NCBI GenBank assembly: GCA_020341815.1
Contig: CP070837.1
Span: 780,954-844,953 of the forward strand
Reading direction: 5' to 3'
Source of the DNA: Candidatus Omnitrophota bacterium
GTDB lineage: Bacteria; Omnitrophota; Gorgyraeia; JAFGHF01
Length of the DNA stretch: 64,000 nucleotides
In this document: piece after piece, positions 1-51,499 of the stretch
How positions within the stretch are numbered: position 1 is the first letter of the stretch
How the letters are laid out: every line of letters starts with the position of its first letter
The notes under the pieces: generated by a model
The model's input: the letters and a program-made list of their open reading frames with translations, nothing else
Databases searched by the model: none
Told to the model about the DNA's origin: nothing
Position numbers and translations under genes: made by a program

Positions 1-1483
1 GACCTCTCAAAAAACCTATTTCTTGAATTGTATTATAAAAGCTAACTCCCGAGACTCTCATATCAGGATGCTCATCGGTCAGTTCTCCGCCCACAAAGAC
101 CTCTGTTTCCCTGGCCTCTGTTACCCTGCCAGCCAGATAAATCGCAATGCCTATTATAATTCCCGCCAGAAGAAGAGCCGTAGCCAGATTCACATTCCAT
201 ATACCTAAGAACTCTACACTTTGTCCTATACTCGGAACAATAAACGCCCCCAGCGGCATGCGATAGGCAAATACTCCGAAGATAATGCACAATAGCGCAA
301 GAAAAGCCGAAGGCATCCATATTGCCGGACTCGTTTCTTTCCCTAAAGGCAGCAGCTTCTGGTCTCTGACTTGCGAAGAAGTCTGCCCCAAAAACACGGT
401 GTGAACTAATTTCATAAAACTGGCTAGCGTCAAGGCGCTGCCAAACAGAGCCGCCACCAGCCAGACTATCCAGAGATATCCTCCATTTGAGGCCGTCTTT
501 ATTATACCCTGATAAACCAGCCATTTTGAAGCAAATCCATTAAAAGGCGGCACACCCGATATGGCCAGGGAAGCTATTAAAAATGAAACAAAAGTAATAG
601 GCATAAACTTAACAAAACCGCCTAAATTATCTAAATTGGTGGTTCCGCTTTTCTTTTCTACGGCCCCGCCCGATAAGAATAAACAGGACTTATACACCGC
701 ATTGTTAAGCATATGAAACAAGCCTCCGGCAATACCTATGGGATTGCCCGTTCCGATACCCAAGACCATATACCCTACCTGACTGACTGCATGATATCCC
801 AATAGACGCTTTAAATCGTGTTGGATAAGTGCCATCATTACTGCGGCCACTATAGTAAAACTTCCCACGGCCATCAAGAGGGTATTCATCGCGCTATTCA
901 TCTGAAACAAATCCAGAGAAATCCTGGCCAGAAAATATATTCCCAGTAGCTTATCCAGAGATGCCGGCAAATACGCGGTAACAGGCGTGGGGGCGTCTTC
1001 CGCCGTATCGGGAATCCAGGTATGAAGCGGCATTGCTCCGGCCTTGGCAAATGCACCGGCGGCAAAACACAGGTATGCCCAGACTGCCGGCTTAGAGGTT
1101 AAGGCTATGCTTATTTTATCCATCTGGAGCGTCCCGGTGAGTTGACCTACAAAAGCCAATCCCAAAATCATCAGGGCATCCGCTGCACCGATTATAATAA
1201 ATGTCTTCTTGGCCGTATAAAGAGTATTTTCCTTCTGCCCGAAACCAATCAGCAAGTAGAGAAGCAACCCCAGAAATCCCCAGAATACCATAAACAAAAT
1301 AAGATTATTTGAAAACACCGCGCCCAATGAAGACAGTAAAGTAAGCACAAGATAGGAATAATAGCGCCAAAGACCTTTTCTTCCCCGCATAAAGGCGGAT
1401 GAATAAAAAATAATCAAGAGAGAAAAGATACCGATGAATATTCCTACAAAATTGGAGAGATTGTCAAATCTAAAAAACTGCAT
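1..1483 (-). CDS. Antiporter-like membrane subunit of energy-converting hydrogenase (NuoL/M/N - Mrp - HyfB/EchA family); C-terminus lies beyond the window start
   Basis: Minus-strand frame open from ATG at 1483..1481 to the window edge; absent from the ORF track because it has no in-window stop. Hand translation begins MQFFRFDNLSNFVGIFIGIF and contains AYLCFAAGAFAKAGAMPLH, the conserved motif of complex I/Mrp antiporter-like subunits. Start overlaps the stop of the upstream large subunit (TGATG). Confidence 0.75.
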   Translation of the reverse strand, partial: MQFFRFDNLSNFVGIFIGIFSLLIIFYSSAFMRGRKGLWRYYSYLVLTLLSSLGAVFSNNLILFMVFWGFLGLLLYLLIGFGQKENTLYTAKKTFIIIGAADALMILGLAFVGQLTGTLQMDKISIALTSKPAVWAYLCFAAGAFAKAGAMPLHTWIPDTAEDAPTPVTAYLPASLDKLLGIYFLARISLDLFQMNSAMNTLLMAVGSFTIVAAVMMALIQHDLKRLLGYHAVSQVGYMVLGIGTGNPIGIAGGLFHMLNNAVYKSCLFLSGGAVEKKSGTTNLDNLGGFVKFMPITFVSFLIASLAISGVPPFNGFASKWLVYQGIIKTASNGGYLWIVWLVAALFGSALTLASFMKLVHTVFLGQTSSQVRDQKLLPLGKETSPAIWMPSAFLALLCIIFGVFAYRMPLGAFIVPSIGQSVEFLGIWNVNLATALLLAGIIIGIAIYLAGRVTEARETEVFVGGELTDEHPDMRVSGVSFYNTIQEIGFLRG

Positions 1484-2664
1484 CAATACCCCATCTTCTT
1501 TCTTAGTTTTTCGGTCTTTGCCTGCGAAAGCTTAACCAGCTCTTCGCCATTATAAAGTTTTTTGCCTTTGGTAGTACGCACGGCCATTCTTTCGGTGCAG
1601 CAGTAACAGGGGTCGATGGCCGCTAAAATTATAGTTGCGTCCGAGATAGTCTCACCCACCACAGTAGCCTTATATGTGGGCAGGTTCATAAATGTAGGCG
1701 CCCTGACCTTATGGCGCACGGGTCTATTTGTGCCGTCACTCCTTATATAATGGAAGGTCTCTCCCCGGGGTGCCTCGATATGGCCGATGCCTTCCCCTGC
1801 GGGGATATTCTTTAGCTTCAGGTCTATCTCTCCCGCAGGCAGATTAAGCAGGCAATATTTAATTATCTTTATGGACTCGAAAGTCTCCAGTATCCTTACT
1901 ACCGCCTTATCAAAGACATCACCGTTTTGCGTAACTATCATCTTCCAGCCTATCTTATCATAGGCTCCGTAGGGTGAATCCTTTCTAACATCCCTGGCCA
2001 CCCCTGAAGCTCTTGCGGTAGGGCCAAGGGCGCTGAAATTTATAGCCTCCTCTTTGGAAAGGATACCTATTCCCTTGGTGCGGGCATGAAGCACCGGGTC
2101 GTCTATCACGGCCTTCTTCAGCATCTCAAGAGTAGGCACGATGGAATCTATCTTTTCAATAACACCTGTTATGTCTTCGGTCTTAATATCCCGTCTTACT
2201 CCCCCGGGCTTAAACATGGCATAGTTATTTCTGTTTCCGGATAAAATCTCCATTACGTCCAGAATTTCCTCTCGCAGTTTCCAGGCCCACATATATACCG
2301 TATTGTACCCCAGAAAGTGTCCGGCCAGGCCCAGCCACAAAAGATGCGAATGTATCCTTTCCCCCTCGGCAATTATCGTCCTGATATATTTTGCACGCTC
2401 AGGCACCTCAACAGGAATAATATCTTCTACTGCCCTTGTGCAGGCAAAGGGATGACTGGTGGAGCATATCCCGCAAATCCTCTCCACCAGAAATGTTGTC
2501 TGGTCAAAGCTTTTGCTTTCGGAGAGTTTCTCTATACCCCGGTGATTGTATCCCAGCTGCACATCGATATCCACAACCGTCTCGCCCTCAACGGTAAGGG
2601 TAAAAAACTCCGGCTCTTCCTGCAGCGGATGATACGGTCCTATCGGAACTATGGTTCTTCCCAT
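1483..2664 (-). CDS. [NiFe] hydrogenase group 4 large subunit (NuoD-like, EchE/MbhL type)
   Basis: Track ORF 1483..2667 (TTG); ATG at 2664 gives [13 protein letters not shown]. Contains both Ni-binding motifs: N-terminal RICGICSTSH (RxCGxCxxxH) and C-terminal DPCYCCTER (DPCxxCxxR), so it is a true hydrogenase rather than a cysteine-less NuoD. Start overlaps upstream stop (TGATG). Confidence 0.85.
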   Translation of the reverse strand: MGRTIVPIGPYHPLQEEPEFFTLTVEGETVVDIDVQLGYNHRGIEKLSESKSFDQTTFLVERICGICSTSHPFACTRAVEDIIPVEVPERAKYIRTIIAEGERIHSHLLWLGLAGHFLGYNTVYMWAWKLREEILDVMEILSGNRNNYAMFKPGGVRRDIKTEDITGVIEKIDSIVPTLEMLKKAVIDDPVLHARTKGIGILSKEEAINFSALGPTARASGVARDVRKDSPYGAYDKIGWKMIVTQNGDVFDKAVVRILETFESIKIIKYCLLNLPAGEIDLKLKNIPAGEGIGHIEAPRGETFHYIRSDGTNRPVRHKVRAPTFMNLPTYKATVVGETISDATIILAAIDPCYCCTERMAVRTTKGKKLYNGEELVKLSQAKTEKLRKKMGY

Positions 2665-3137
2665 CAAACTCCTCTATCTCTTATTGCGCTTTTGTCCCAT
2701 TCTTTATAATCGCCTCTTAAAGGATGAACTCCTTCGGGCCACGCCTCAGGTAAAAGAAGCCTTCTTAAATCGGGATGTCCCCGGAAATGTATCCCTAAAA
2801 GCTCATACATTTCTCTTTCTATCCAGTTTGCCGCCTCAAAGAGAGGGGCGAGTGAGTCTATTTCCAGCTTTGGTTTTGGCAGTTTTACCCGTAGAGAAAT
2901 AAGCAGGTTTATATCTTCAATAGTAAAATGATAGAGAATCTCCATATGATATCTTGCGTCTATCCCTGAGGCAATGTTGAACCTTGCCTTCAAGTCGCCA
3001 AAGATGTAACCGGCGACCTTAGTAATTGCTGAGGGCTTAATCTCAATATACACCCTCCTGGCGGATTTATCCAAAACCTCGATTATCTCTTCGGCAAATC
3101 TCTCTTTTATATCATTTAAGACTTCTTCTCTGGTCAT
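2664..3137 (-). CDS. NuoC-like subunit of energy-converting hydrogenase (EchD/MbhK, 30 kDa subunit family)
   Basis: 157 aa [17 protein letters not shown]...; size and position between small and large subunit genes; ATG start, 4-nt gap to upstream gene. Confidence 0.7.
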
Positions 3138-3141
3138 TTTT

Positions 3142-3564
3142 CTACTTCTTTTTAATTTTCTCTATCAATTTAACCACGCCGGCAATAATCGCCTCCGGCT
3201 TGGGCGGACAGCCGGGAATATAAACATCCACAGGGATAATCTTATCCAGCGGCAGGGGGCAATTATAACTATGGATGAACATACCGCGGGACAAGGAACA
3301 TTCTCCTATCGCCACCACAAGACAGGGCTTGGGCGCCTGCTCATATAACCTCTTTAATCTGACAACCGACTGGCGGTTACAGGAGCCGGTAATCAAAAGC
3401 ACATCGGCGTGCTTGATACTGGGGGCCAGAAGCATCCCGAATCTTTCAATATCAAATCTCGGCGTAAGGCAGTCCAGTATCTCTATATCACAGTTATTGC
3501 AGCTGCCCGTAGATAAGTGAAATACCCAGGGAGATTTTAATAATGCCTTCAGCTTCAAGCTCAT
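3142..3564 (-). CDS. [NiFe] hydrogenase group 4 small subunit (NuoB-like, EchC/MbhJ type)
   Basis: 140 aa; cysteine ligands for a proximal Fe-S cluster (GSCNNCD ... GEC ... GCPP), typical of NuoB/HycG-type small subunits. Confidence 0.8.
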
Positions 3565-3575
3565 ATCTTTATCCT

Positions 3576-4499
3576 TTACAAACCTTTTAAAGCCAGCAAA
3601 ACTGCTGCGGCGGCAATAATGGTCAAAGGTCCCCAGAAGAACCTTACCGCCTGGTCAATCCTGACACGGGGATTGGTATTCCTTATTACCGTAATCAAGG
3701 CAACCAGGCCCACAACCTTCAGCAGGCCGTTTAAAAGATGCAAACCGTCAGATCTTAAACCGCCCATAAATATAATTGCCAGAAAAAAGGGCAGCGTAAA
3801 CAAAAGCATATTCTTCATCAATCTATAAATGCCTAAGGCGCTGCCGGAATACTCTACCAAGGGGCCGGAGACAATTTCTGTCTCGGCCTCAGGGATATCA
3901 AAAGGAACCAGGGCCAGCTTTGCCTGCACACAAAAAACAGCCACCACCAAAGCTAAAGTTCCGGAGAGGCTTCCCGTAATAGCCCCGTTTTGGGTCTGAT
4001 AAGCCAGAATCTCTGCCAGTCTTATGGAAAAGCCGGATTTTATTACCGGCACAAACACCGCAAGCACAAAAGGGAGCTCATAACCTAAGATAAGCTTCAT
4101 CTCCCGCGAGGCCCCCAGGCTTGCTAAGGGGTTTCGCGAGGCAAAGCCACCCATTATTATACTGATAGAAGGGATAGTCAATAGATATAATACCACTATC
4201 AAATCCCCTAAGAATGTATCGCCCGAGCCGAGATTATTTATCCATAATAAAGTAGCTACCAGGATTACGCTGGTCAAGCCCGCAACAGGGGCCATCAAGA
4301 AGGTTGCCCTTGAGGCGCCCCGGGGGATAAGTGTTTCTTTGCCTAAGAGTTTTACGATATCGATTAAAGGTTGTAAAATGGGCGGACCCACGCGATATTG
4401 TACCCTGGCGGTAACCTTTCTATCCACCCAGCTGGCCAAGAGGCCTATAATAGCCGTTAACAAAAACCCATAAAAAATAAAATACAATATGTATATCAT
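3576..4499 (-). CDS. NuoH-like integral membrane subunit of energy-converting hydrogenase (EchB/HycD type)
   Basis: 307 aa polytopic membrane protein (MIYILYFIFYGFLLTAIIGLLASW...RVQYRVGPP...), NuoH/HycD family signature; ATGA overlap with upstream ferredoxin gene. Confidence 0.8.
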   Translation of the reverse strand: MIYILYFIFYGFLLTAIIGLLASWVDRKVTARVQYRVGPPILQPLIDIVKLLGKETLIPRGASRATFLMAPVAGLTSVILVATLLWINNLGSGDTFLGDLIVVLYLLTIPSISIIMGGFASRNPLASLGASREMKLILGYELPFVLAVFVPVIKSGFSIRLAEILAYQTQNGAITGSLSGTLALVVAVFCVQAKLALVPFDIPEAETEIVSGPLVEYSGSALGIYRLMKNMLLFTLPFFLAIIFMGGLRSDGLHLLNGLLKVVGLVALITVIRNTNPRVRIDQAVRFFWGPLTIIAAAAVLLALKGL

Positions 4500-5002
4500 G
4501 CCTTTTCTCTATCCCAGTGCGTAGAATGGACGATAAGATTATCCCCAACAAGAAAGGTGTGCTCATTCAGCTTCAAATCGGCATCTTTCAAACTCAGCGC
4601 CCCGTAAGGACAACTCTGGATGCAAAGCGGATCACTAAGCCAGGCCCTTCTGTCCAGGCAAAAATCACAACTATGCGTCAATAAAGGAACCAGCTCCGGA
4701 TATATCGTGCCGTAAGGGCAGGCATGACTGCAGGATTTGCAACTTACGCAGCGCATATTGTGCCTGGTGAGAAGTTTTTCCTTATCTTCCTGCTCCTCAA
4801 GCGCCTCTACCGGACAGGCATTGACGCAATGCGGCTCCTCACACCTGCGGCAGACCAGATAATATGTAGCCACTTCCGCCACCGAAACGATTCCGTTATT
4901 CCCGGGATGATAAAAATAACTGCATTTTACGACACACTCTTCGCATTCGCCGCTAGCACAAACATCCAGATCAATAAACAAGCGTTTATCTTTAGCGCCC
5001 AT
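4496..5002 (-). CDS. 4Fe-4S ferredoxin-type subunit (HycB/EchF-like)
   Basis: 168 aa with several CxxCxxCxxxCP-type clusters (CVSCKSCSHACP, CDFC...CIQSCP). Confidence 0.7.
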   Translation of the reverse strand: MGAKDKRLFIDLDVCASGECEECVVKCSYFYHPGNNGIVSVAEVATYYLVCRRCEEPHCVNACPVEALEEQEDKEKLLTRHNMRCVSCKSCSHACPYGTIYPELVPLLTHSCDFCLDRRAWLSDPLCIQSCPYGALSLKDADLKLNEHTFLVGDNLIVHSTHWDREKA

Positions 5003-5003
5003 A

Positions 5004-5822
5004 TCAGTCCCAGATATTAGGAAAGTTTTTTATCTTAGAATATTTAAAAACAGGCCCGTCTTTACAGGCATAATAAATCCCCAGACGGCAATGGCCGCAC
5101 TTTCCGATGCCGCAGGACATATTCTTTTCCATAGAAAGATAGATATTCTCTTCTTTAAAGCCCATCTCCTGTAGTTTCCTAGTGGCGAATTTCATCATTA
5201 CCGGCGGGCCGCAGACAATAGCAATGCCTGATGCGTAATCCATATCTACATCATCTAAAATAGTAGTAACCAGCCCCACATGACCCTGCCAGCTTTCATC
5301 CCCGGCATCAACCGTCAGCTTCAAATTCAGGTCTTTTCTTTCCCGCCACTTCTCTGTCTCGCTTCTATATACAAGCTCACGGGGCGTTTTACAACCCCCT
5401 CTAAAAAATAACTTCTTAAACTCATCCGAACGCTCCAGCAAAGAATACATCAGGCTTCTTAAAGGGGCAAAGCCGCATCCGCCTCCCACAACCAATAGCT
5501 CTTTGCCTTTAAAATCATCCAGGGGATAACCTTTGCCAAAAGGCCCGCGCAGACCCACGATATCGCCTTTTTTAAGCTGGTGAATCCTCTCGGTAACCCT
5601 GCCCACCTTCATTACGGTCACTTCCATAGTATCTTTCACCGAAGGCCTTGATGAAGGGGTAAAAGGGGCCTCGCCTACTCCGGGAATAGTCAATTCTATA
5701 AATTGACCGGTGGCAAAGGAAATTTCTTCTTTGGGTTTAAGCTTGATTGTCTTTATGGTCGGGGTCTCTGTGGTAACTTCGAGGACCTTTGTCTCTATGG
5801 GGCTGTAAGGATTATTGGGCAT
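5004..5822 (-). CDS. FAD/NAD(P)-binding ferredoxin-reductase-like subunit with C-terminal [2Fe-2S] motif (AsrB / sulfhydrogenase gamma HydG-like)
   Basis: 272 aa; FNR-like barrel plus GGGCGFAP nucleotide-binding motif and C-terminal CGIGKCGHC cluster, as in PyrK/AsrB/HydG proteins. Confidence 0.75.
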   Translation of the reverse strand: MPNNPYSPIETKVLEVTTETPTIKTIKLKPKEEISFATGQFIELTIPGVGEAPFTPSSRPSVKDTMEVTVMKVGRVTERIHQLKKGDIVGLRGPFGKGYPLDDFKGKELLVVGGGCGFAPLRSLMYSLLERSDEFKKLFFRGGCKTPRELVYRSETEKWRERKDLNLKLTVDAGDESWQGHVGLVTTILDDVDMDYASGIAIVCGPPVMMKFATRKLQEMGFKEENIYLSMEKNMSCGIGKCGHCRLGIYYACKDGPVFKYSKIKNFPNIWD

Positions 5823-6843
5823 TGCCTACCAGTTTTTTGAGAACCTTTCTGATGTCTATCTTTGCCGGACACGCCGAGATACAGCGGCCGCAGCCTGTGC
5901 AGGCATAGATATCGGCTACCTTGGGGAAAAAATCAAATTTTTTTTCAAACCTGTTTCTTAATCTCATCCATAACTTCGGCCGGGGATTGGCCCCGCCGGC
6001 AACCTCGGCAAAATCCTTTATCATACACGAATCCCAGATGCGCAGGCGCGCCATATGCTGCGGGCTTTTCTGGTCATATAGGAGAAAGCAATGGCAGGTC
6101 GGACAGATAGTATTGCATGCCCCGCACTCTACGCAAGTCTTGGCTTCATCTTTCCAGATGTCCGACTCATATTTCTTCTCAATTATGCCTTTATATGATT
6201 CCTGATGTGGAATATCGTTTTCCTTAATATTATCCTCTACCTTTTTGGCTACCCAGTTCCTTTGCCCGTCTCTTTCGGAAAGGGCCTCATCAGGCATCTC
6301 TTCAAAGAGCGAGGAATGTTTATCGATAAGCGTTTCTCCTTTTTGTGAACCCACCTCCACAAGAAAACCTTCCTTGCCCTGAGAAAGATTAATATCAAAG
6401 TTCTCTCTGGGGTAAGGCTGAATACCTAAGGCCATACAAAAGCAGGTCTCGATGGCAGAGGTGCAGTCTGCGGATATAATAAGGTTTTGCTGGCGATTCC
6501 TGATATAGAAAGGGTCTTTATAATCATGATTTGTGAATACATGGTCTTGAACCTTGAAGCCTTTGAGGTCGCAGGCCTTAACTCCCACAATGGCAAATGG
6601 CTTGTTTGTTGAGGAAGGAACTTTATCGGTCTTGAAGTCTTCGGCAACTATTTCTCTGGCCCGCGAAAAAAAGGCCTTCAGGGGTTCATATGCTCTGACC
6701 TCGCCAATTACAACATTATCCGAAGATTGATTAAACTTTTTATAAAAACGCTGCTTATCCTTTTTAACAGGAACATAGACCTCATAATCGGCCTGTAATG
6801 CCTCGAGCAGCTTAACAAAATTATTTTTGGAAATATAATGCAT
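5812..6843 (-). CDS. Fe-S subunit, AsrA / sulfhydrogenase beta (HydB)-like
   Basis: 343 aa with C-terminal cysteine clusters CVECGACNTICPTCHC and CTGCGRCISACP; partner of the FNR-like subunit directly downstream (11-nt overlap). Confidence 0.65.
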   Translation of the reverse strand: MHYISKNNFVKLLEALQADYEVYVPVKKDKQRFYKKFNQSSDNVVIGEVRAYEPLKAFFSRAREIVAEDFKTDKVPSSTNKPFAIVGVKACDLKGFKVQDHVFTNHDYKDPFYIRNRQQNLIISADCTSAIETCFCMALGIQPYPRENFDINLSQGKEGFLVEVGSQKGETLIDKHSSLFEEMPDEALSERDGQRNWVAKKVEDNIKENDIPHQESYKGIIEKKYESDIWKDEAKTCVECGACNTICPTCHCFLLYDQKSPQHMARLRIWDSCMIKDFAEVAGGANPRPKLWMRLRNRFEKKFDFFPKVADIYACTGCGRCISACPAKIDIRKVLKKLVGNAQ

Positions 6844-6844
6844 A

Positions 6845-7483
6845 TTATTTTTTCATTTCTTCTCTCTTTACCAGAAAATAAGAGAGCGTCTCCAGTTCTC
6901 TGGAGAGATCCACATCTTTTACTTTGACATTATCCGGCACAATCAGTGTCGCCGGGGCAAAGTTCAGAATACATTCCACTCCTGCCTTAATCAACTTATC
7001 CGCCACTCCTTGAGCCTCTTTCGCCGGCACGGCTATAATGCCGATAGATATCTTTTTTGCCGGGATTGCTCTGGAAAGCTCATCTATGGACTGAACAACA
7101 ATATCTTTTACCTGCTTGCCTATTTTCCTGGCATCCACATCAAAGGCCGCTACTATATTCAGTCCGCGCTCCTTAAGTCCCGGATAAGCCAGAAGCGCCG
7201 AACCCAGATGCCCCGCCCCTACAACCGCAACATTCCAGGTACTGTCTTTTCCCAGTATCTTCTCCAAAGCGGCTTTTAACTCATCGGTATTGTAGCCGGC
7301 GCCGCTTACACCGAATTGACCAAAGTAGCCCAGGTCCTTCCTTACCTGCGCATCGCTTAAGTTGGTCCTCTCGCCTAATTCCGCAGAAGATATGGTGTGA
7401 ATATTCATTTTGGTTAATTCACTAATTTCTCTCAAGTAAATAAAAAGACGCGAGATGACCCCTTCAGGAACCTTTTTGTTCAT
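6845..7483 (-). CDS. rex: Redox-sensing transcriptional repressor Rex
   Basis: Track ORF 6845..7615; likely start is the internal ATG at 7483 (MNKKVPEGVISRLFIYLREI...). Winged-helix N-terminus plus Rossmann motif VAVVGAGHLG, typical of Rex. Stop is 1 nt before the next gene. Confidence 0.8.
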   Translation of the reverse strand: MNKKVPEGVISRLFIYLREISELTKMNIHTISSAELGERTNLSDAQVRKDLGYFGQFGVSGAGYNTDELKAALEKILGKDSTWNVAVVGAGHLGSALLAYPGLKERGLNIVAAFDVDARKIGKQVKDIVVQSIDELSRAIPAKKISIGIIAVPAKEAQGVADKLIKAGVECILNFAPATLIVPDNVKVKDVDLSRELETLSYFLVKREEMKK

Positions 7484-7496
7484 CTGCCGCCTCTGT

Positions 7497-7514
7497 TTGT
7501 AACAATATTCACAG
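7497..7514. promoter_or_regulatory. Rex-box-like palindrome A (TTGTAACAATATTCACAG)
   Basis: Matches the Rex operator consensus TTGTGAA-N4-TTCACAA at 5/7 and 6/7 half-site positions; lies 14-31 nt upstream of the rex ATG. Confidence 0.45.
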
Positions 7515-7517
7515 ACT

Positions 7518-7535
7518 TTGTGCCACTTTTCACAA
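7518..7535. promoter_or_regulatory. Rex-box-like palindrome B (TTGTGCCACTTTTCACAA)
   Basis: Left half 5/7, right half 7/7 to TTGTGAA-N4-TTCACAA; directly adjacent to box A and just downstream of a candidate -10. Confidence 0.5.
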
Positions 7536-7564
7536 AGAATAACAAATAAAAAAGGCTTTGTCAA
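7536..7564 (-). promoter_or_regulatory. Candidate sigma70-type promoter for the rex-hydrogenase operon
   Basis: Minus strand reads TTGACA-N17-TATTCT (-35 perfect, -10 at 4/6); the Rex boxes sit immediately downstream. Confidence 0.3.
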
Positions 7565-7628
7565 GGAAAATCTGTAAGGATTTTCCGCAGACCTCGCCGC
7601 TTTTTGGCGGGGCAAAATATAATTTCTA

Positions 7629-8660
7629 TCAGCAAATCCTGCCGCCGCCTATCACAACATCCCCCTGATAAAATACTGCCGATTGGCCCGGCGCAGGCGC
7701 CCATTGGGGATGTGCAAATCTTACCTTCGCCTTTTCCTTTCCCTGCGGAATAATGCTGGCGGGTGCTGCCAGATGCAGGTATCTTATCTTAACCTCTGCC
7801 TCAAGATGCGCCTCTAACCTACCTCCATATATAAAACTTACATTATCGACAATTAATTCATCTTTATAAAGTTCTTGCTTGAGCCCTACCACGATACTGT
7901 TATTTTCCCTATCGATAGAACTTACATATAAAGGCTCTTTATGGGAGAGGCCTATCCCCTTGCGCTGGCCGACAGTATAAAAAATAATCCCCTGATGTTC
8001 ACCGATAACCTCACCACCCTTCCTTAAGATAGGCCCGGGCCTGTAGAGCTCTTCGGGAATATATTCCTTAAGAAACTCTCCATAGCGATTATTAGGGATA
8101 AAGCATATTTCCTGGGATTCCGTGCTTTCCGCTGCCGGCAAATCTTTCTTGCGGGCAATCTCTCTTACCTGTTCCTTGGTTAAATTGCCCAGGGGCATTA
8201 AAGTCCTCTCCAGCTCTTCCTCATTCATTAAATACAGAAAATAAGACTGGTCCTTTCGGGAATCAATCCCCCTTTTAAGAAGGTGCCTTTGTCCATTATG
8301 TTCTATGCAGGTATAATGGCCGGTAGCTATATAATCTGCGCCTAAGGCCCCGGCCTTTCTAATTAACGTATCGAACTTTATATATTTATTACATCTGACA
8401 CAGGGATTGGGCGTGTGTCCTCTTTTATATTCTTCGCAGAAGTCGCTAATCACCCTCTCCTTAAATATATCCTCAAGATTCAGGACATAATGGGGTATTC
8501 CCAATCTGCGACCTTGAGCTCTTGCCTCTTCCAGTCTGGAATCTTTAGTCATCTGCATAGTCAGACCGATGACCTCAAAGCCCTCATCCTTAAGCAGACT
8601 GGCCGCAACCGATGAGTCTACGCCCCCGCTCATTGCTATAACAACTTTTTTTCGCTTCAC
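7629..8660 (-). CDS. mnmA: tRNA 2-thiouridine(34) synthase MnmA
   Basis: Track ORF starts at TTG 8708; GTG at 8660 preceded by GAGAGGT gives VKRKKVVIAMSGGVDSS, the PP-loop SGGxDS motif typical of the MnmA N-terminus. Confidence 0.85.
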   Translation of the reverse strand: MKRKKVVIAMSGGVDSSVAASLLKDEGFEVIGLTMQMTKDSRLEEARAQGRRLGIPHYVLNLEDIFKERVISDFCEEYKRGHTPNPCVRCNKYIKFDTLIRKAGALGADYIATGHYTCIEHNGQRHLLKRGIDSRKDQSYFLYLMNEEELERTLMPLGNLTKEQVREIARKKDLPAAESTESQEICFIPNNRYGEFLKEYIPEELYRPGPILRKGGEVIGEHQGIIFYTVGQRKGIGLSHKEPLYVSSIDRENNSIVVGLKQELYKDELIVDNVSFIYGGRLEAHLEAEVKIRYLHLAAPASIIPQGKEKAKVRFAHPQWAPAPGQSAVFYQGDVVIGGGRIC

Positions 8661-8735
8661 TTTAAAACCTCTCAATATAAAAAGCGCCCTTGCCCACTTC
8701 CCTTCCAATTCAAAAAGGCATCAGGCGCCTGCTTT

Positions 8736-9674
8736 TTACTCCTGGCTCAAATAACGCTCGCCGGTGTCCGGTAAAATTACTACGATAAGCTTACCTTTGT
8801 TTTCTTTTCTCTTGGCTACTTTAATTGCCGCAAAAACAGCAGCTCCTGAGGAAATCCCCGCTAATATACCCTCTTTGAGGGCCAACTGCCGCATGGCCCT
8901 CAAGGCATCCTCATCGCTGACCTGAATTACCTCATCAATCAGCTCTTTTTTTAAAACCTGGGGAATAAATCCAGCGCCGATACCCTGAATCTTATGCTTA
9001 CCCGGTTTTTTTCCCGCCTGCTCGCCATATTTTTGGCGAGAAAGAACTGCAGATTCTTTAGGCTCAACTGCGATAGCGCGAAATCCCGGCTTTCTTTTTT
9101 TGATAGCTTCGGCCACTCCGGTAATAGTTCCACCTGTGCCCACACCGCTAACCAAAATATCTACCTTTCCCTCCGTATCACGCCAAATCTCCTGGGCTGT
9201 AGTCTGGCTATGAGCTTTAGGGTTAGCCGGATTTTCAAACTGCTGCGGCATAAAGGAATTAGGAGTCTTTTTTATGAGCCCTTCCGCCTTTTTGATTGCC
9301 CCGGGCATCCCTGCTTTGCCGGGTGTCAAGATAACTTTGGCACCCAAAAGAGATAAAATTTTTCTACGCTCAACGGACGTCTTATCCGGCATAGTTAAAA
9401 TTAAGTTATAACCTCTTACTGCCGAGACAAAGGCCAGACCAATGCCTGTATTGCCGCTGGTCGGCTCAATAATGGTAGTGCTTTTTTTAATCAATCCCTT
9501 TTTCTCGGCATCCTCAATCATACTCAAGCCGATTCTATCCTTTACGCTGGATAAAGGATTGAAGAACTCAAGTTTTCCTGCCAGATGGGCCTTTAATCCG
9601 GGGCTTATCCTATTTAGGCTCACTAAAGGGGTATTTCCTATCAGAGCGGTTATATCTTTTGCTATCTTTGCCAT
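8736..9674 (-). CDS. cysK: Cysteine synthase A (O-acetylserine sulfhydrylase)
   Basis: 312 aa; [18 protein letters not shown]..., PLP-lysine region SVKDR and GNTG glycine loop characteristic of CysK/CysM. Confidence 0.85.
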
Positions 9675-9693
9675 TAACTTTCTCTCCTTGCAA

Positions 9694-10596
9694 CTATCTT
9701 TTTCGACTTAAATATCTGAATGCGCCCAATGCTGCCTTGGAGCCTTCTCCTGCGGCGATGATAATCTGTTTCTCTACAACATCGGTAACGTCACCGGCGG
9801 CAAAAACCCCCGGGATATTGGTTTCATTGCGGCAATTCACTTTAATTTCGCCGTTTTCGTTTATATCTATGCCCCTGGCAAAGGCGGAATTGGGTTTTAG
9901 GCCCACTTCTACAAAGATTCCCTCAACAGCTAAGGATTCCTCTTTGTCTTTCTTTTCTATCTTAATACCTTTGACCATCTTATCGCCAAAGATAGAGGTT
10001 ATGCGCGTATTATTAAGGATAGATACCTTTTTACTAGAGTTGACTTTCTCCTGCATGATGGCGTCGCCCGTAAGATTATCGGCAATATTAATAATATAGA
10101 CGCGCCTGGCTATCTTTACTAACTGTAAAGCCGCATCCAGCGCAGAATTCCCCCCACCGACAACAGCAACGTCTTTGCCGGTGAATAAAGGGCCATCGCA
10201 GGTAGCACAATAAGTAAGCCCCCTGTTTTTAAACTCTTTCTCACCCGGAACGCCAAGCTCTTTTGAGGTTTTTCCGGAAGCAATTATCAGTGTTGCGGTC
10301 TCATATTTGCCCTTATCCGTCTTAACCAGAATAGAGTTTTCTTTTCTCTCAAGCGCCAGGGCCTGTTCGTTTTCTTTCAAGTCGATATTGTATTTCTTCA
10401 TGTGTTCTTCGAACTTTGCGGTCAACTCCGGACCGCTAATAAATTGATAACCGGTGTAATTCTCAATATTTCCGCTCCAGGCGGTTTGTCCGCCGATATC
10501 TTTGGTGATGACCAGAAAGTTCATCCTCTTGCGGGCGGCATATACGCTGGCGGTTATGCCTGCGGGGCCCGCCCCGATAATGATTAAATCATACAT
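9694..10596 (-). CDS. trxB: Thioredoxin-disulfide reductase-like flavoprotein
   Basis: 300 aa; FAD-binding GAGPAG, redox-active CATCDG and NAD(P)-binding GGGNSA motifs. Confidence 0.8.
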
Positions 10597-10600
10597 AATT

Positions 10601-10837
10601 TTACAATCCTAACAGCTGGCTTATTCTGTCTTTATCAAAGCCCGTTACGATTTCCCCGTTGATGTCCAGTACCGGAACACCCATCTGTCCGGATTTATCT
10701 ATCATCTCTTGCGCGGCTTCCTGATTTTCCGAGACGTCAACGTCTTCGAAAGGTATATTATTTTCCTTTAAGAATTGCTTGGCCCTGATGCAGTATGGAC
10801 AGGTAGGGATGCTGTATATCTTTACCTTATTATCCAT
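10601..10837 (-). CDS. Glutaredoxin-like protein (NrdH/Grx family)
   Basis: 78 aa with CPYC active site and thioredoxin-fold length. Confidence 0.75.
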   Translation of the reverse strand: MDNKVKIYSIPTCPYCIRAKQFLKENNIPFEDVDVSENQEAAQEMIDKSGQMGVPVLDINGEIVTGFDKDRISQLLGL

Positions 10838-10852
10838 TTTGGCCTCTCTTTT

Positions 10853-11296
10853 TTACAAATCCGTCTCTTTAATCCAGGCGCCATGCAGATTGCACAGCTC
10901 TATTACACTTAAACGCCCTTTATTCGCCTTAAGATGAAGTGCGCCGGCCGGATTGAGCTTATCAGGGGTAAGCGCAATTCTGGAGATAAACTCCTTGTCT
11001 ATGTAGAAATCGATATGCAGGATATAGTGCTCCGGCTGCATCGGATGCTGAATCTCACCCATCTTTACGTGCACGTCTTCGCAGCCCTCGGGTATCAGGC
11101 CGCATTTTTTTACCAGATTGATTACGGGGATGTGCTTCTTTTCCAAGTCGCTGAGATTATTTTTATCTTTGGGCAGCTTTATGGCATCTTCTTTTTCCTC
11201 AAAGGCGCTTTGAGGTGCCCCGCATACGGGGCATTTATCGGGTGCAGTGCCATTGATTGAGATAAACTTGCAAACCTTGCAAACCAGACCTTTCAT
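10853..11296 (-). CDS. Superoxide reductase (desulfoferrodoxin/neelaredoxin type) with N-terminal Cys4 domain
   Basis: 147 aa; N-terminal CKVC...CPVC pair; SOR centre motifs EKKHIPV and CNLHGAW. Confidence 0.7.
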   Translation of the reverse strand: MKGLVCKVCKFISINGTAPDKCPVCGAPQSAFEEKEDAIKLPKDKNNLSDLEKKHIPVINLVKKCGLIPEGCEDVHVKMGEIQHPMQPEHYILHIDFYIDKEFISRIALTPDKLNPAGALHLKANKGRLSVIELCNLHGAWIKETDL

Positions 11297-11313
11297 GGTT
11301 CACCCCCCTTTTT

Positions 11314-11889
11314 TTAATAATTTTCACAGAGGAGCTCGTAATAGCTCTGCGGATGGGCGCAGGCAGGACACTCCTCGGGTGCTTCTTTTCCTTCATGCAC
11401 ATATCCGCAATTGCGGCATTTCCATTTAACCACTGCATCTTTTTTGAACACAGTGCCTTCTTTTACATTTTTAAGTAATTTCCGATATCTTTTCTCATGC
11501 TGCTCTTCCACTTCGGCTATTTCCTTAAACTGCTTGGCTACCTCTTCAAAACCTTCACTCCGGGCGACCTCTTCGGCCTCTTTATAAAGCTTGGACCACT
11601 CCAGGTGCTCTCCGGCGGCTGCGGCTTGCAAGTTCTGCGGCGTATCCCCGATTATGCCTGCCGGGTAAGAAGCGGTAATCTCTACATCGCCCCCTTCCAA
11701 GAGTTTGAAAAACCTCTTGGCGTGCTCTTTCTCATTGTCGGCGGTCTCTAAGAAAATTGCCGCTATCTGCTCATAACCCGCCTTTTTTGCTACCGAAGCA
11801 AAATATGTATAACGGTTCCTGGCCTGGGACTCCCCGGCAAAAGAGGCAAGTAGGTGCTTTTCCGTCTTTGTTCCTTTTACGCTTTTCAT
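11314..11889 (-). CDS. rbr: Rubrerythrin
   Basis: 191 aa; diiron four-helix bundle E..EXXH motifs plus C-terminal rubredoxin-like CRNCGY...CPAC. Confidence 0.85.
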   Translation of the reverse strand: MKSVKGTKTEKHLLASFAGESQARNRYTYFASVAKKAGYEQIAAIFLETADNEKEHAKRFFKLLEGGDVEITASYPAGIIGDTPQNLQAAAAGEHLEWSKLYKEAEEVARSEGFEEVAKQFKEIAEVEEQHEKRYRKLLKNVKEGTVFKKDAVVKWKCRNCGYVHEGKEAPEECPACAHPQSYYELLCENY

Positions 11890-11902
11890 CCTTTTCCCTC
11901 CT

Positions 11903-12364
11903 TTATTTCAGGTGTGCCGGTGTAAGGTCGACTATTTTTTCCGTATCCATCACAATCATATATTCGGGCGTAGGCAAAAGTGCCTCCGGATGATGGCGGT
12001 GCCCTTTTTCCCCGGCAACATTCTTAAGAACCCTTTTTGTAATCCTCTGGGCAATCTTTTTCTCCCAGTCCGTAATAATATGGGAACCGAGCTTATCTTT
12101 TTTTATGAGCTTTGCCTTACCCTTCAGGGAAAAACCTCTAAACTTATGTTCATCGACAGCCGTAACTGCTATATTGGGATTACTTCTTAAGTTTTCGAAA
12201 GTCTGGGCATTATAAAGGTCAAGGAGATAAATTTGGCCGTTTTTGTTTATCTTCACTATGCCTTTACAGGAATTGTGAGGCGAGCCTGCTTTATCAATGG
12301 TCGAGACGATAACAAAACTCTGCTTATGAAAAAACTGGATTAAATCATCGCTAAGCGCTTTCAC
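11903..12364 (-). CDS. Pyridoxamine 5'-phosphate oxidase-like FMN-binding protein
   Basis: 153 aa, GTG start 2 nt after the desulforedoxin stop; split-barrel FMN-binding family by length and sequence character. Function unknown. Confidence 0.55.
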   Translation of the reverse strand: MKALSDDLIQFFHKQSFVIVSTIDKAGSPHNSCKGIVKINKNGQIYLLDLYNAQTFENLRSNPNIAVTAVDEHKFRGFSLKGKAKLIKKDKLGSHIITDWEKKIAQRITKRVLKNVAGEKGHRHHPEALLPTPEYMIVMDTEKIVDLTPAHLK

Positions 12365-12366
12365 GG

Positions 12367-12492
12367 TCAGCCTGAGACCTTTTCCATAGGCTGATTGCAG
12401 CAGACCAGCTCCCCTCCGCCCACCTTTGTTACGGTAACTTCATTGCCGCAGACATTGCACTTGTAATGCTCACCAACCTTTTCTACCGCCAT
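12367..12492 (-). CDS. Desulforedoxin-like small Cys4 metalloprotein (41 aa)
   Basis: Below the ORF-track cut-off. Hand translation MAVEKVGEHYKCNVCGNEVTVTKVGGGELVCCNQPMEKVSG* carries the desulforedoxin CxxCG ... CC cysteine pattern; strong SD (GAGGGAGG) upstream; stop 2 nt before the next gene. Confidence 0.55.
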   Translation of the reverse strand: MAVEKVGEHYKCNVCGNEVTVTKVGGGELVCCNQPMEKVSG

Positions 12493-12504
12493 ATACGCCT
12501 CCCT

Positions 12505-12921
12505 CTATTTAAAAAGATCTATGTATATCGCAAAAAGCAAAGCCAGGGCTGAAAGCGCAAATATAAACATATAATTTATTCTTTCTTTTCCGGAACTCAG
12601 CGCGCAAAGAATTGCGCCCAGCAAATCGTAATCCTCTTGGCTTAACTTTTCTTTAAGATTTATCTTATCCAAAAGCCTTCTCTGAGATATGGCGTTGTGT
12701 CTTGCCTGATTTATTCTAAACTTATACACAAAAAATAAGAAAAATCCACCCACCCCTATATACCAGGCAACCTTGGCATAAAAGGGGCTGGCGTGCATCA
12801 GAATTGTCACCACCCGAATTGCCGCCGTTGCTATAAGGCCGATAATAAAAAATAGCCAGGAAGCAAAAGAATCCCTGCAATTTTTATATTCGCTGCAGGT
12901 TATGCATTTATTTTTTTCCAT
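12505..12921 (-). CDS. Hypothetical membrane protein with N-terminal CxxC...C motif
   Basis: 138 aa; predicted transmembrane segments; no recognised family. Confidence 0.45.
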   Translation of the reverse strand: MEKNKCITCSEYKNCRDSFASWLFFIIGLIATAAIRVVTILMHASPFYAKVAWYIGVGGFFLFFVYKFRINQARHNAISQRRLLDKINLKEKLSQEDYDLLGAILCALSSGKERINYMFIFALSALALLFAIYIDLFK

Positions 12922-12929
12922 GAGACCTG

Positions 12930-13580
12930 TTAAACTATGATTTCTTTCAGCTGGGATATATTATCTATGATATAATCCGGTCTTGCTTTTAGAATATCCT
13001 CTTTTTTGCCTATTCCGTAGGTAACCGCGCAAGTTGCTATACCGGCTCTTTTGCCGGCTAATATATCTACATCCATATCCCCTACAATTATAGTTTTTTC
13101 TTTAGGCATTTTGAGCTTTTCCATGGTTTGGTCCAAAGAACAGGAAGAAGGCTTCATGCATCCGGAGTTATCTCCTCCTAAGACATCTTCAAAATAATCA
13201 TATACGCCGAGCGTCTCCAGGGCGAGCCTGGCAAATTTATACTTTTTATTGGTCACGATGGACTTTCTCTTATCCTTAAAATATTCCAATACTTCTTTTA
13301 CGCCCGGATAAAGACGGGATTTATCTACGGAATGAAGTGCGTAATATTGTTCGAACCGGAATACGGCCTCATTAAGAAGCGAATCCTTCTTTTCCCCTAA
13401 AGACTTCCCGATTAAGTCCTCTAAGCCCGTACCGATATAAGAAGTTATCTCGGATAAACTTTTCTCCTTAAGGCCAAACTGCCTTAAAGTAAAATTGACG
13501 GCACCGGCTATATCCTCTCTTGAATCAACTAAAGTGCCATCTAAATCAAATATAATCAAGCCTATAGGCTTTGCCTGCAT
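12930..13580 (-). CDS. HAD-superfamily hydrolase (phosphoglycolate phosphatase-like)
   Basis: 216 aa; HAD motif I IIFDLDGTLVDS and motif IV GDMDVD. Confidence 0.75.
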   Translation of the reverse strand: MQAKPIGLIIFDLDGTLVDSREDIAGAVNFTLRQFGLKEKSLSEITSYIGTGLEDLIGKSLGEKKDSLLNEAVFRFEQYYALHSVDKSRLYPGVKEVLEYFKDKRKSIVTNKKYKFARLALETLGVYDYFEDVLGGDNSGCMKPSSCSLDQTMEKLKMPKEKTIIVGDMDVDILAGKRAGIATCAVTYGIGKKEDILKARPDYIIDNISQLKEIIV

Positions 13581-13586
13581 CGCCTT

Positions 13587-14321
13587 TTATCCCGCAATTT
13601 TAAGCAACATCATAAAAACCAGCCCTAAGATAAAAGTGAAAAAGGCGATATTTGCCCTTTTCGCGTCCTTCTGCTTATGCAGCTCGGGGATCAAGTCCGA
13701 GGCGGCAATATAGATAAAGCCCCCGGCGGTAAATGAAATCAAAAATAAAGAAAAGTTTTGCGTGAGGCCTGAGAGAATATATCCTATAACAGCGCCTAAT
13801 ACAGCCGTAAGGGCGCAGAGAAAGTTAAAAAATAGCGCCCGGGTTTTAGTAAAGCCGCCATAAACAAGGATTCCGAAATCCCCCATCTCCTGGGGAATCT
13901 CATGAAAGATAACCGCCAGCGTAGTTATGATGCCCAATTTTATATCGGTCATAAAACTGGCGGCGATAATCAGGCCATCGGTAAAATTATGTACCCCATC
14001 ACCGATTAAGTTCAGATATGTAAAGGTGTGCACATCACACACTCCTTCGTGACAATGCCTCCAGTAAAGATATCTTTCCATCAGGAAAAAGGTGGTAAAA
14101 CCGATTAAGGTATAGAAAAATACAAGGTTGCATGCACATCGGGTGAGAGCCTCAGGCAGAAGGTGCAGGAAGGCTCCACCAATTAATCCACCGGCGGCAA
14201 AACCGACCAATAAAACCAGTATGTTATCAAATGTCTTTGTCTTTACTCCTAAAGTAAAAACACCGATTAACGAAATAAGGCTGACCACTATTGTAGCCGA
14301 TAAAATCCAAATCAGCGTCAT
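13587..14321 (-). CDS. ZIP-family divalent metal transporter (ZupT-like)
   Basis: 244 aa polytopic membrane protein with HNFTDG and HEIPQEMGDF motifs typical of ZIP transporters. Confidence 0.75.
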   Translation of the reverse strand: MTLIWILSATIVVSLISLIGVFTLGVKTKTFDNILVLLVGFAAGGLIGGAFLHLLPEALTRCACNLVFFYTLIGFTTFFLMERYLYWRHCHEGVCDVHTFTYLNLIGDGVHNFTDGLIIAASFMTDIKLGIITTLAVIFHEIPQEMGDFGILVYGGFTKTRALFFNFLCALTAVLGAVIGYILSGLTQNFSLFLISFTAGGFIYIAASDLIPELHKQKDAKRANIAFFTFILGLVFMMLLKIAG

Positions 14322-17384: not shown

Positions 17385-17385
17385 T

Positions 17386-18129: not shown

Positions 18130-18144
18130 ATTAAACCACTCCCT

Positions 18145-18417
18145 TTATCCAAAGCTATAGTGTTTCTTCACCGCCTCCTGAATATCCCAGAGGCAACTTA
18201 GGCCCTTGGGGAAAACCACAAAATCGCCTGCGCCGAAATTGACGGTCTTTGCGTCTTTGGTGGTAACAGTAACCTTGCCTTTTAAAAGATAGCAGCTTTC
18301 CTTATCATCATAATGCCAGTTGAATCTGGATACCTCTTTCTCCCATATCGGCCAGCTGGATACATTCAAGTCCCTCAATTTATCCTGAGTAGGTTTCTCG
18401 ATCTTTATCTCGGACAT
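18145..18417 (-). CDS. Cupin-domain protein
   Basis: 90 aa small beta-barrel protein; family assignment tentative. Confidence 0.5.
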   Translation of the reverse strand: MSEIKIEKPTQDKLRDLNVSSWPIWEKEVSRFNWHYDDKESCYLLKGKVTVTTKDAKTVNFGAGDFVVFPKGLSCLWDIQEAVKKHYSFG

Positions 18418-18434
18418 CTTCTTATGCCTCCTTT

Positions 18435-19586: not shown

Positions 19587-19594
19587 AAAAGAAC

Positions 19595-36244: not shown

Positions 36245-36305
36245 TCCCACCCCTCTCTAATTACCATATTAAAGCAAATATCCCCGTTTTTCGCAAGATT
36301 TTTTT

Positions 36306-49338: not shown

Positions 49339-49349
49339 TATCTTTTCCT

Positions 49350-50411: not shown

Positions 50412-50426
50412 TACAATCTCCCGCAA

Positions 50427-51485: not shown

Positions 51486-51499
51486 GCCTACGTTTCCTC

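Follow-up and report, generated by a model that had tools for sequence, protein, structure and literature searches.

A Rex-led Hun hydrogenase operon in an Omnitrophota bacterium and its possible coupling to NADH

A 16-subunit supercomplex named Hun has been described in Atribacteria, Omnitrophica, Elusimicrobia, Bacteroidetes and Kosmotoga (Glass et al. 2021, bioRxiv 10.1101/536078). In that account HunA and HunB resemble AsrA and AsrB, the complex includes an Mrp-like Na+ module, and ferredoxin is proposed as the electron donor to HunABC; the large subunit HunG carries a CGIC-CYCC signature and falls into group 4g in HydDB, at a distance from the other sequences of that group. Genes for asrA, asrB and cooF have also been reported beside a group 4 hydrogenase, with relatives in Zixibacteria and Omnitrophica (Matheus Carnevali et al., PMC6349859), and the arrangement has been named the "Mbh-Mrp-oxidoreductase type", the function of the oxidoreductase being called unknown (Meheust et al., 10.1101/765248). 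Group 4g, Mrp-linked hydrogenases have been reported in Omnitrophota as well (Williams et al., PMC8542988). Here we analyze an operon at one end of a 64,000-nucleotide stretch of a Candidatus Omnitrophota genome (contig CP070837.1, positions 780,954 to 844,953), referred to below as the window. Positions 1–7564 of the window hold the front half of a Hun operon, namely a promoter, two Rex operator-like boxes, rex, hunABCDEFG and most of hunH (Table 1), and we regard the identity of the locus as Hun as nearly certain.

The window edge cuts the operon inside hunH, the first antiporter-like gene, and the continuation was therefore read from a proxy. A scan of one genome per species yielded 593 stretches encoding relatives of HunG, and the best 80 of them, at 64–88% identity, were examined. 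The proxy, contig L003, carries P0002, a large subunit 98% identical to HunG; from trxB-cysK-mnmA-rex as far as the antiporter-like gene, it and the window are collinear, with 94.5% nucleotide identity. Table S5 of Glass et al. (10.1101/536078) gives the Pfam content of hunR and hunA-P, and this content was reproduced one-for-one by hunR and hunA-H in the window and by hunI-P in L003. The hunR entry there is PF02629 + PF06971, the same Pfam pair as in the window rex, which identifies hunR as a Rex-type regulator. Gene order, the CGIC...CYCC signature, the upstream hunR, the Mrp-like module and the presence of AsrA-like and AsrB-like subunits without AsrC all agree with Hun as published, and we found no structural difference. 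One difference of position is that hunR is not adjacent to the operon in the three Omnitrophica metagenome-assembled genomes of Glass et al., whereas here rex leads it. The name "rex" and its operators are absent from the main text of that paper, where hunR appears only in Table S5. A sequence-only reading of the window, which preceded this work, could not say whether the arrangement had been described before. It had been, both as Hun and as the Mbh-Mrp-oxidoreductase type. The architecture, including the Rex-type regulator, was already known and Omnitrophica were already listed as carriers, so that the locus itself adds little.

The Mbh-Mrp-oxidoreductase loci of Saganbacteria and Elusimicrobia (PMC6349859, 10.1101/765248) likewise combine asrA-, asrB- and cooF-like genes with a neighboring group 4 hydrogenase that has Mrp subunits. 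The Saganbacteria locus also has an unclassified molybdopterin oxidoreductase, whereas no such gene was found between hunB and hunC in the window or in nearly all of the 80 loci. In one of these loci (L061) there is a 3.8-kb insertion that lacks a molybdopterin domain and holds only a pilin-like motif and open reading frames (ORFs) without matches.

Judged by its sequence, HunG is a genuine group 4 [NiFe] hydrogenase large subunit. Both Ni-binding CxxC motifs, which the sequence-only reading had noted, are intact, as CGIC in RICGICSTSH (L1) and as DPCYCC in DPCYCCTER (L2), and CGIC and CYCC were invariant in a 14-sequence and in a 65-sequence set. The best solved relatives of HunG were MbhL of Pyrococcus furiosus (2.8e-91), followed by HycE of Escherichia coli (3.4e-85). 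A Candidatus Omnitrophota protein at NCBI matches it with 100% identity, and hundreds of relatives stand at 85–90%. In HunE the cluster ligands Cys22, Cys25, Cys89 and Cys119 were invariant in the 65 sequences. The operon thus pairs a NuoD-like subunit bearing both CxxC motifs with a NuoB-like subunit bearing four Cys for the proximal cluster, as a group 4 [NiFe] hydrogenase should. A non-hydrogenase complex of the Ehr/Mbx-like kind was considered and rejected, on the strength of the invariant CxxC motifs and the neighboring hycI and hyp genes.

In L003 the hunH homologue runs to its full length of 549 amino acids and is followed by MbhD/E-, MnhB- and NuoK-like genes, a second antiporter-like gene (492 amino acids) and MnhE-, MrpF- and MnhG-like genes, which makes seven Mrp-type genes after hunH. 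Next comes a gene for a 205-amino-acid NuoI-like 2x[4Fe-4S] protein, HunP. Two further Omnitrophota contigs (L001, L002) and about 60 other loci showed the same content. Because these loci continue with Mrp-type and NuoI-like genes, we assign the enzyme, from its gene content, to the 16-subunit Mbh-Mrp type of group 4 [NiFe] hydrogenase, supplemented by a soluble input module, and not to the six-subunit Ech type. Ech (group 4e) shares with Hun the NuoH-, NuoB-, NuoC-, NuoD- and NuoL-like subunits, but it has six subunits with one antiporter-like member and no Mrp module, where Hun has sixteen. The minimal six-subunit Ech architecture that had been read from the window therefore does not hold. 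The polyferredoxin within the window, HunC, is an extra connector of the CooF/HycB type and not the equivalent of EchF/NuoI; that equivalent is HunP, encoded at the far end of the operon in L003.

The maturation genes follow the same pattern. The earlier remark that no hyp genes lie in the window is accurate as it stands, but it reflects where the window ends: in L003 and many other loci hunP is followed by hycI (the HycI endopeptidase gene), hypA, hypF, hypC, hypD and an AIRS-domain hypE-like gene. By analogy with this relative, we place hunI-P and then hycI and hypAFCDE just past window position 1. An unusual pairing of domains was seen in L001, where a 433-amino-acid product (18305–19606) with HupF_HypC and Radical_SAM Pfam domains is encoded between hypA and rex.

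Among solved enzymes, the closest to this core is the P. furiosus membrane-bound hydrogenase MBH (group 4d, PDB 6CFW), the source of the best large-subunit match. Its Mrp-type arm and its NuoH-, NuoB-, NuoC- and NuoI-like subunits are common to the Hun loci. MBH differs in lacking the HunABC module and in being fed by ferredoxin, and HunG differs in carrying the CYCC variant of the L2 motif.

The second half of the comparison concerns HunA and HunB. HunA matched the beta subunit of P. furiosus sulfhydrogenase 1 (PDB 9nez_B) over residues 4–340 (6.6e-46), and HunB matched the gamma subunit (PDB 9nez_C) over its whole length (2.7e-55); the likeness of the pair to sulfhydrogenase beta/gamma, noticed from the letters of the window, is thus a full-length homology. 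The Cys clusters and the flavin and nucleotide motifs of this soluble hydrogenase I (SHI; group 3b, PDB 9NEZ/9NF0) are kept in HunAB. The literature searched held no paper for the SHI cryo-electron microscopy structure. At the family level the pair stood apart from its named relatives. HunA scored 202 bits with the NCBIfam model ShyB, 169 with HydB and 141 with AsrA, all under the equivalog cut-offs (323 for AsrA). The top match of HunB was AsrB at 240 bits (cut-off 288.6), and its score ranks between AsrB and the group 3b gamma subunits. As the HydBG/ShyBC scores (202, 169, 184 and 178 bits) compare with cut-offs of 600–750, HunAB are not sulfhydrogenase equivalogs either. We conclude from these scores that HunAB form a distinct branch of the sulfhydrogenase beta/gamma-AsrAB family. 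The pair was also considered as AsrAB of an anaerobic sulfite reductase, and this was rejected since the AsrA and AsrB scores fell under their cut-offs and no asrC was present. In particular, no asrC (NIR_SIR) was found among the ~55 window ORFs scanned with Pfam or in the gene tables of L001–L003.

The cofactor sites of the module are strongly constrained. All 15 Cys of HunA were 100% conserved in the 65 sequences. In HunB, which has the Pfam domains FAD_binding_6, NAD_binding_1 and DHODB_Fe-S_bind, the flavin-site PFTPSS, the nucleotide motif GGGxGxAP, CGPP and the [2Fe-2S] ligands Cys237, Cys242, Cys245 and Cys253 were invariant or nearly so. HunC has 16 Cys, sufficient for four [4Fe-4S] clusters, of which 13 were invariant and the other three conserved at 92–97%; its relatives in the PDB are ArrB and the subunits HycB4 and HycB3 of HDCR. 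Because the cofactor and nucleotide motifs of HunB are so constrained, it seems unlikely that this flavoprotein acts as a mere ferredoxin acceptor. Pfam detected no second flavin domain or bifurcation-type domain in HunA or HunC; for lack of a second flavin domain, flavin-based bifurcation was set aside as a default model.

Taken together, Hun resembles, by analogy, an MBH to which the diaphorase (beta-gamma) half of soluble hydrogenase I has been added through a CooF/HycB-type adaptor. HunAB are joined through the CooF-like adaptor to a membrane-bound group 4 enzyme, whereas the SHI pair is joined to a group 3b small subunit. The same logic, a soluble oxidizing module wired through a HycB/CooF-type polyferredoxin, is found in the formate hydrogenlyase (FHL) of E. 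coli (PDB 7Z0S) and in the CO- and formate-linked Mbh of Thermococcales. The input enzyme differs, being a flavoprotein with a pyridine-nucleotide domain in Hun and a molybdo- or nickel-enzyme in FHL and the CO-linked systems.

The flavoprotein arm appears to be inherited together with the hydrogenase. When the proteins of the window and of L003 were mapped onto the best 80 loci, the hunA-P order was kept in essentially all of those with a long enough contig. Synteny in related genomes had been proposed as a check by the sequence-only reading; in every locus with enough upstream sequence, hunA and hunB were never missing and lay next to hunC-G. In the 65-sequence set, pairwise identities tracked those of HunG with r = 0.86 for HunA, 0.82 for HunB and 0.87 for HunC, compared with 0.85–0.88 for the core subunits HunD, HunE and HunF. 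Since these identities track HunG as those of core subunits do, and since the genes are spaced by one nucleotide or overlap, the comparison indicates that HunABC are an integral, co-inherited part of the complex. This disposes of one of the refuting conditions set in the sequence-only reading.

The best 80 loci were labelled Omnitrophota, Hydrogenedentota, Fermentibacteria/Aegiribacteria, Spirochaetota, Elusimicrobiota, Nitrospinaceae, Nitrospirota, Margulisiibacteriota, Desantisbacteria and Kiritimatiellia, together with the isolate Desulfosarcina variabilis, whose locus (L038) has hunA-P and hycI; some of the labels taken from metagenome-assembled genomes may be unreliable. Departures from the common gene order were rare. 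Five loci labelled Spirochaetota (L033, L036, L039, L043 and L044) were rearranged, with hunP-hycI directly after hunG and the Mrp-like genes either upstream on the opposite strand or displaced downstream. A gene for a PhoU-domain protein, absent from the window, was found inside the hun operon of some relatives (L004 11134–11796; L049 16980–17579), located in either the hunG-hunH or the hunO-hunP interval. ORFs of 205–220 amino acids similar to this protein were present in L011, L050, L056, L067 and L070.

We compared the NAD domain of HunB alone with solved structures. The first match was NqrF of Na+-NQR (3.5e-14), with the SHI gamma subunit at 7.4e-9; next came PyrK, an NAD+ enzyme, NADH-nitrate reductase and NADH-cytochrome b5 reductases. 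Enzymes of the FNR family with an acidic residue where beta-3 ends tend to prefer NADH, whereas the 2'-phosphate of NADPH is bound by an S/T-R pair. The HunB motif T/S-V-D172 had Asp in 65 of 65 sequences, and T-V-D172 aligned with L-S-D of NqrF and T-D-D of PyrK, whereas the NADPH-linked HydG of P. furiosus has S-V-T-R at this position. The nucleotide domain of HunB thus looks to be of the NADH type. This Asp172 pattern, taken with the sensing of NADH/NAD+ by Rex, tilts our interpretation toward NADH, though we judge the case for NADH as the physiological partner of Hun to be about evenly balanced. Coupling of the complex to NAD(P)H in general, as put forward in the sequence-only reading, is plausible on these sequence comparisons and differs from the published ferredoxin proposal.

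Predicted operator sites support a transcriptional tie between hun and Rex, as had been predicted from the position of rex at the head of the operon. The product of rex scored 266 bits with NF003995 (cut-off 126) and 253.5 bits with NF003993 (cut-off 217), and has the Pfam domains Put_DNA-bind_N and CoA_binding. The intergenic gap between mnmA and rex is 145 nt and contains the best minus-strand promoter-like site in positions 1..9000; the right-hand limit drawn earlier for the unit, 7564, falls at the –35 hexamer of this site. Two boxes resembling the Rex consensus TTGTGAANNNNTTCACAA (Ravcheev et al. 2012, as quoted in PMC5317091) follow in tandem. Box 1 abuts the –10 hexamer directly, box 2 lies 3 nt after box 1, and the tandem is located 14 nt before the rex ATG. 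The 64-kb window contains four matches with three or fewer mismatches, as many as chance would give, and two of the four are the tandem pair. Box 1 is also present in L003, and the tandem pair recurs in L003, L006, L017, L027 and L056.

The placement of such boxes was surveyed in the 68 loci with enough upstream sequence. A rex gene was adjacent in 19 loci (upstream in 15 and downstream in 5, with both in one), and a box with three or fewer mismatches was found at the hun or rex promoter in 31, comprising all 19 rex-adjacent loci and 12 others. With the limit lowered to two mismatches and the duplicate L002 dropped (67 loci, 1.25 Mb), 25 of the 29 matches lay in hun or rex promoters, which make up 2.4% of the sequence (binomial P ~1e-36). 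Among the loci without rex within 10 kb, 8 of 49 carried a box at this limit compared to 0.06 expected. The only match in 21 kb of L001/L002 lies 70 nt upstream of hunA (L001 5691–5708, 1 mismatch). These predicted operators indicate that Rex control of hun is recurrent across phyla. In some Omnitrophota rex lies downstream of hun-hycI-hypA (L001/L002 19625–20281; L011, L014), with the box still upstream of hunA.

What these observations do not fix directly, beyond gene identity, motif conservation, operator placement and co-inheritance of HunABC, we infer as follows. As NADH accumulates, Rex would leave the hun promoter DNA. HunB would then oxidize NADH through its FAD and [2Fe-2S] cluster and pass the electrons to HunA, whose two ferredoxin-type clusters and conserved four-Cys site may form a relay as in sulfhydrogenase beta. 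From there the electrons would travel through the four clusters of HunC to the NuoI-like HunP, the proximal cluster of HunE and finally the [NiFe] site of HunG, where protons would be reduced to H2. The arm of NuoH-like, antiporter-like and Mrp-like subunits would couple this near-equilibrium reaction to movement of H+ or Na+. Except where H2 is low, NADH → H2 runs slightly uphill, and for this reason H2 release in these fermenters is most likely assisted by the ion gradient; the enzyme probably works in both directions. We hold with moderate confidence that Hun is a Rex-controlled enzyme carrying electrons from NADH to H2 through HunAB with coupling to ion flux. The stronger statement, that Hun is the first group 4 (energy-converting) [NiFe] hydrogenase to exchange electrons directly with NADH, Rex-gated and coupled to an ion gradient, is tentative and in our estimate falls somewhat short of an even chance.

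Several points weigh against a Rex-controlled flow from NADH to H2. The characterized Mbh and Ech enzymes use ferredoxin, and NADH → H2 is endergonic under standard conditions, which makes it unlikely that NADH alone could drive a forward ion pump. Ferredoxin might still bind to HunP or HunC. The genes past the window edge come from a 94.5%-identical relative and not from this genome's own sequence, and the choice of NADH over NADPH was made from sequence similarity and the FNR-family Asp rule, not from a nucleotide-bound structure. Only 19 of the 68 loci have rex adjacent and only 31 have a recognizable box. Moreover, Rex also controls a ferredoxin-dependent membrane-bound NiFe hydrogenase in Caldicellulosiruptor bescii (PMC6391272), so that Rex control alone does not identify the donor. 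Of the published accounts, one names ferredoxin as the donor to HunABC (10.1101/536078) and the other leaves the oxidoreductase without a function (10.1101/765248); the literature searched held no biochemistry on any Hun complex, no Kosmotoga expression data, and no earlier proposal of NADH/NAD(P)H coupling or of Rex operators for Hun. The published model, proposed by Glass et al. (10.1101/536078), would make Hun a ferredoxin-driven Mbh-like pump: reduced ferredoxin would supply electrons to HunABC or HunP, H2 would form and Na+/H+ would be exported, the nucleotide domain of HunB being vestigial or regulatory. It accommodates the ferredoxin-dependent MbhL as closest solved large subunit, the NuoI-like HunP shared with MBH, the thermodynamics, which favors ferredoxin for a forward pump, and the regulation by Rex of a ferredoxin-dependent NiFe hydrogenase elsewhere (PMC6391272). 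Set against this, the invariance of GGGxGxAP, CGPP, PFTPSS and Asp172 across many phyla is unlike a vestigial site, MBH accepts ferredoxin without any such flavoprotein module, and HunAB are full-length homologues of the NADPH-oxidizing half of sulfhydrogenase I. We consider the ferredoxin-driven pump unlikely on balance.

The complex might also run in reverse, oxidizing H2 and reducing NAD(P)+ with export of ions, in hydrogenotrophs or as an H2 recycler like SHI in P. furiosus. By established thermodynamics, H2 → NAD+ releases ~18 kJ/mol under standard conditions, which would pay for roughly one ion, and there are respiratory or autotrophic carriers such as Desulfosarcina variabilis and Nitrospinaceae, as well as Elusimicrobia predicted to be acetogens (10.1101/765248). 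However, Rex derepresses at high NADH (PMC5317091), which fits an enzyme that consumes NADH rather than one that produces it, and most carriers are predicted fermenters; this direction strikes us as quite improbable. A slim chance is left for a dual-substrate hub, in which ferredoxin enters at HunP or HunC and electrons leave to H2 or, via HunAB, to NAD(P)+ (Rnf-like, with H2 as an overflow valve), or in which NADH and ferredoxin are used together. The NuoI-like subunit and the flavoprotein arm do share one Fe-S wire, and P. furiosus reaches the same net chemistry with MBH and SHI, but the domain searches of HunA and HunC described above detected no second flavin or bifurcation-type domain and no ferredoxin site is identifiable in the sequence. 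We give next to no credence to a minimal six-subunit Ech of group 4e to which an NAD(P)H module is attached, or to its variant in which the AsrAB-like pair belongs to an unrelated anaerobic sulfite reductase. That only six hydrogenase-type genes are visible within the window, and that the top NCBIfam match of HunB is AsrB, would fit these proposals; the first is contradicted by synteny, given the Mrp-type and NuoI-like genes of L003 and ~60 loci, and the second by the AsrB score (240 against 288.6 bits), the lack of asrC/NIR_SIR and the fixed position of hunAB beside hunC-G. Of these proposals, the one we prefer is still Rex-controlled oxidation of NADH by HunAB with release of H2.

The nine genes are co-directional and each assignment in Table 1 is backed by Pfam and NCBIfam. 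The description of a compact, rex-led unit given by the sequence-only reading agrees with both the domain matches and the tight junctions. A single nucleotide separates rex from hunA and hunB from hunC, hunA and hunB share 11 nt, hunC overlaps hunD by ATGA, TGATG joins hunF to hunG and hunG to hunH, and the remaining gaps measure 4 and 11 nt. The ATG start of rex gives the length seen in homologues, 212 amino acids. The TTG start at 7615 in the ORF list makes the protein too long, and it was rejected because it lies upstream of the promoter elements and homologues have 212 amino acids. In a scan of positions 1..9000, no promoter or terminator internal to the operon rose above background level, and terminator-like sites occurred at background frequency (12 found compared to 10.1 expected).

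Table 1. Genes and regulatory features of the hun operon within the window (aa, amino acids)
Feature	Position	Strand	Description	Matches
rex (= hunR)	6845..7483	minus	redox-sensing repressor, 212 aa	Pfam + NCBIfam
hunA	5812..6843	minus	AsrA/HydB-like Fe-S subunit, 343 aa, 15 invariant Cys	Pfam Fer4_22
hunB	5004..5822	minus	FNR/PyrK-type flavoprotein, 272 aa, FAD + NAD(H) domains, C-terminal [2Fe-2S] motif	
hunC	4496..5002	minus	CooF/HycB-like polyferredoxin, 168 aa, 16 Cys	Pfam Fer4_11
hunD	3576..4499	minus	NuoH/MbhM-like membrane subunit, 307 aa	Pfam NADHdh 1.7e-64
hunE	3142..3564	minus	NuoB-like hydrogenase small subunit, 140 aa	Pfam Oxidored_q6
hunF	2664..3137	minus	NuoC-like subunit, 157 aa	Pfam Complex1_30kDa
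hunG	1483..2664	minus	[NiFe] large subunit, 393 aa, 34-aa C-terminal extension	Pfam Complex1_49kDa + NiFeSe_Hases
hunH	1..1483	minus	antiporter-like (NuoL/MrpA/MbhH-type), first 494 of ~549 aa	Pfam Proton_antipo_M 6.3e-56
promoter-like site	7536..7564	minus	TTGACA, 17-nt spacer, TG-extended TATTCT	10/12 positions
Rex operator-like box 1	7518..7535	–	TTGTGAAAAGTGGCACAA (minus-strand reading)	2 mismatches to TTGTGAANNNNTTCACAA
Rex operator-like box 2	7497..7514	–	CTGTGAATATTGTTACAA (minus-strand reading)	3 mismatches to TTGTGAANNNNTTCACAA

The rest of the window is housekeeping in character, with mnmA, cysK, Suf genes, genes for purine, histidine and carbamoyl-phosphate biosynthesis, glutamate dehydrogenase, polyamine genes, GH65 phosphorylases and an efflux pump. 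A Pfam scan of its ORFs found no other hydrogenase, and tRNA and Rfam scans of the 64 kb found nothing. Just upstream of cysK-mnmA-rex, on the minus strand at 9694–12364, lies an oxygen and redox defence cluster typical of a strict anaerobe, with genes for a thioredoxin-reductase-like protein (trxB), a glutaredoxin (10601–10837), a desulfoferrodoxin with a rubredoxin-like N-terminus, a rubrerythrin and a PNPOx-like flavoprotein. A second FNR-like flavoprotein (17386–18129; FAD_binding_6 and NAD_binding_1, no Fe-S domain) is encoded within 16218–18417 (minus), beside a small cupin and a permease with YHS and ArsP domains. Further along the minus strand, a spermidine synthase gene sits between two S-adenosylmethionine decarboxylase paralogues (34675–36250), and two GT4 glycosyltransferase genes sit between two GH65 glycoside phosphorylase genes (47014–54226), the larger of which (51500–54226) encodes a C-terminal CBS pair. 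Two minus-strand ORFs, of 556 amino acids (61895–63565) and 138 amino acids (12505–12921), had no Pfam match. Nearly all genes in 1–36800 and 41400–64000 are on the minus strand, and GC skew was negative in every profiled window of 1–14000, consistent with one replichore.

The additions made here, namely that HunAB are homologous to subunits of a solved sulfhydrogenase, that the nucleotide domain of HunB looks NADH-type and that predicted Rex operators recur across phyla, make the NADH hypothesis concrete, and it can be tested in the cultured carriers Desulfosarcina variabilis and Kosmotoga. If it is true, a Rex-gated NADH:H+ oxidoreductase would let uncultured fermenters shed glycolytic NADH as H2 without an electron-confurcating [FeFe] hydrogenase. 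The carriers concerned are Omnitrophota, Atribacteria, Fermentibacteria, Hydrogenedentota, Elusimicrobia and Spirochaetota, with at least 80 loci and possibly ~590 species genomes. Such an enzyme would represent a new coupling site in anaerobic energy metabolism and would revise the ferredoxin-only picture of group 4 hydrogenases, and it would help to explain how NADH is re-oxidized to H2 in widespread uncultured fermenters and syntrophs.

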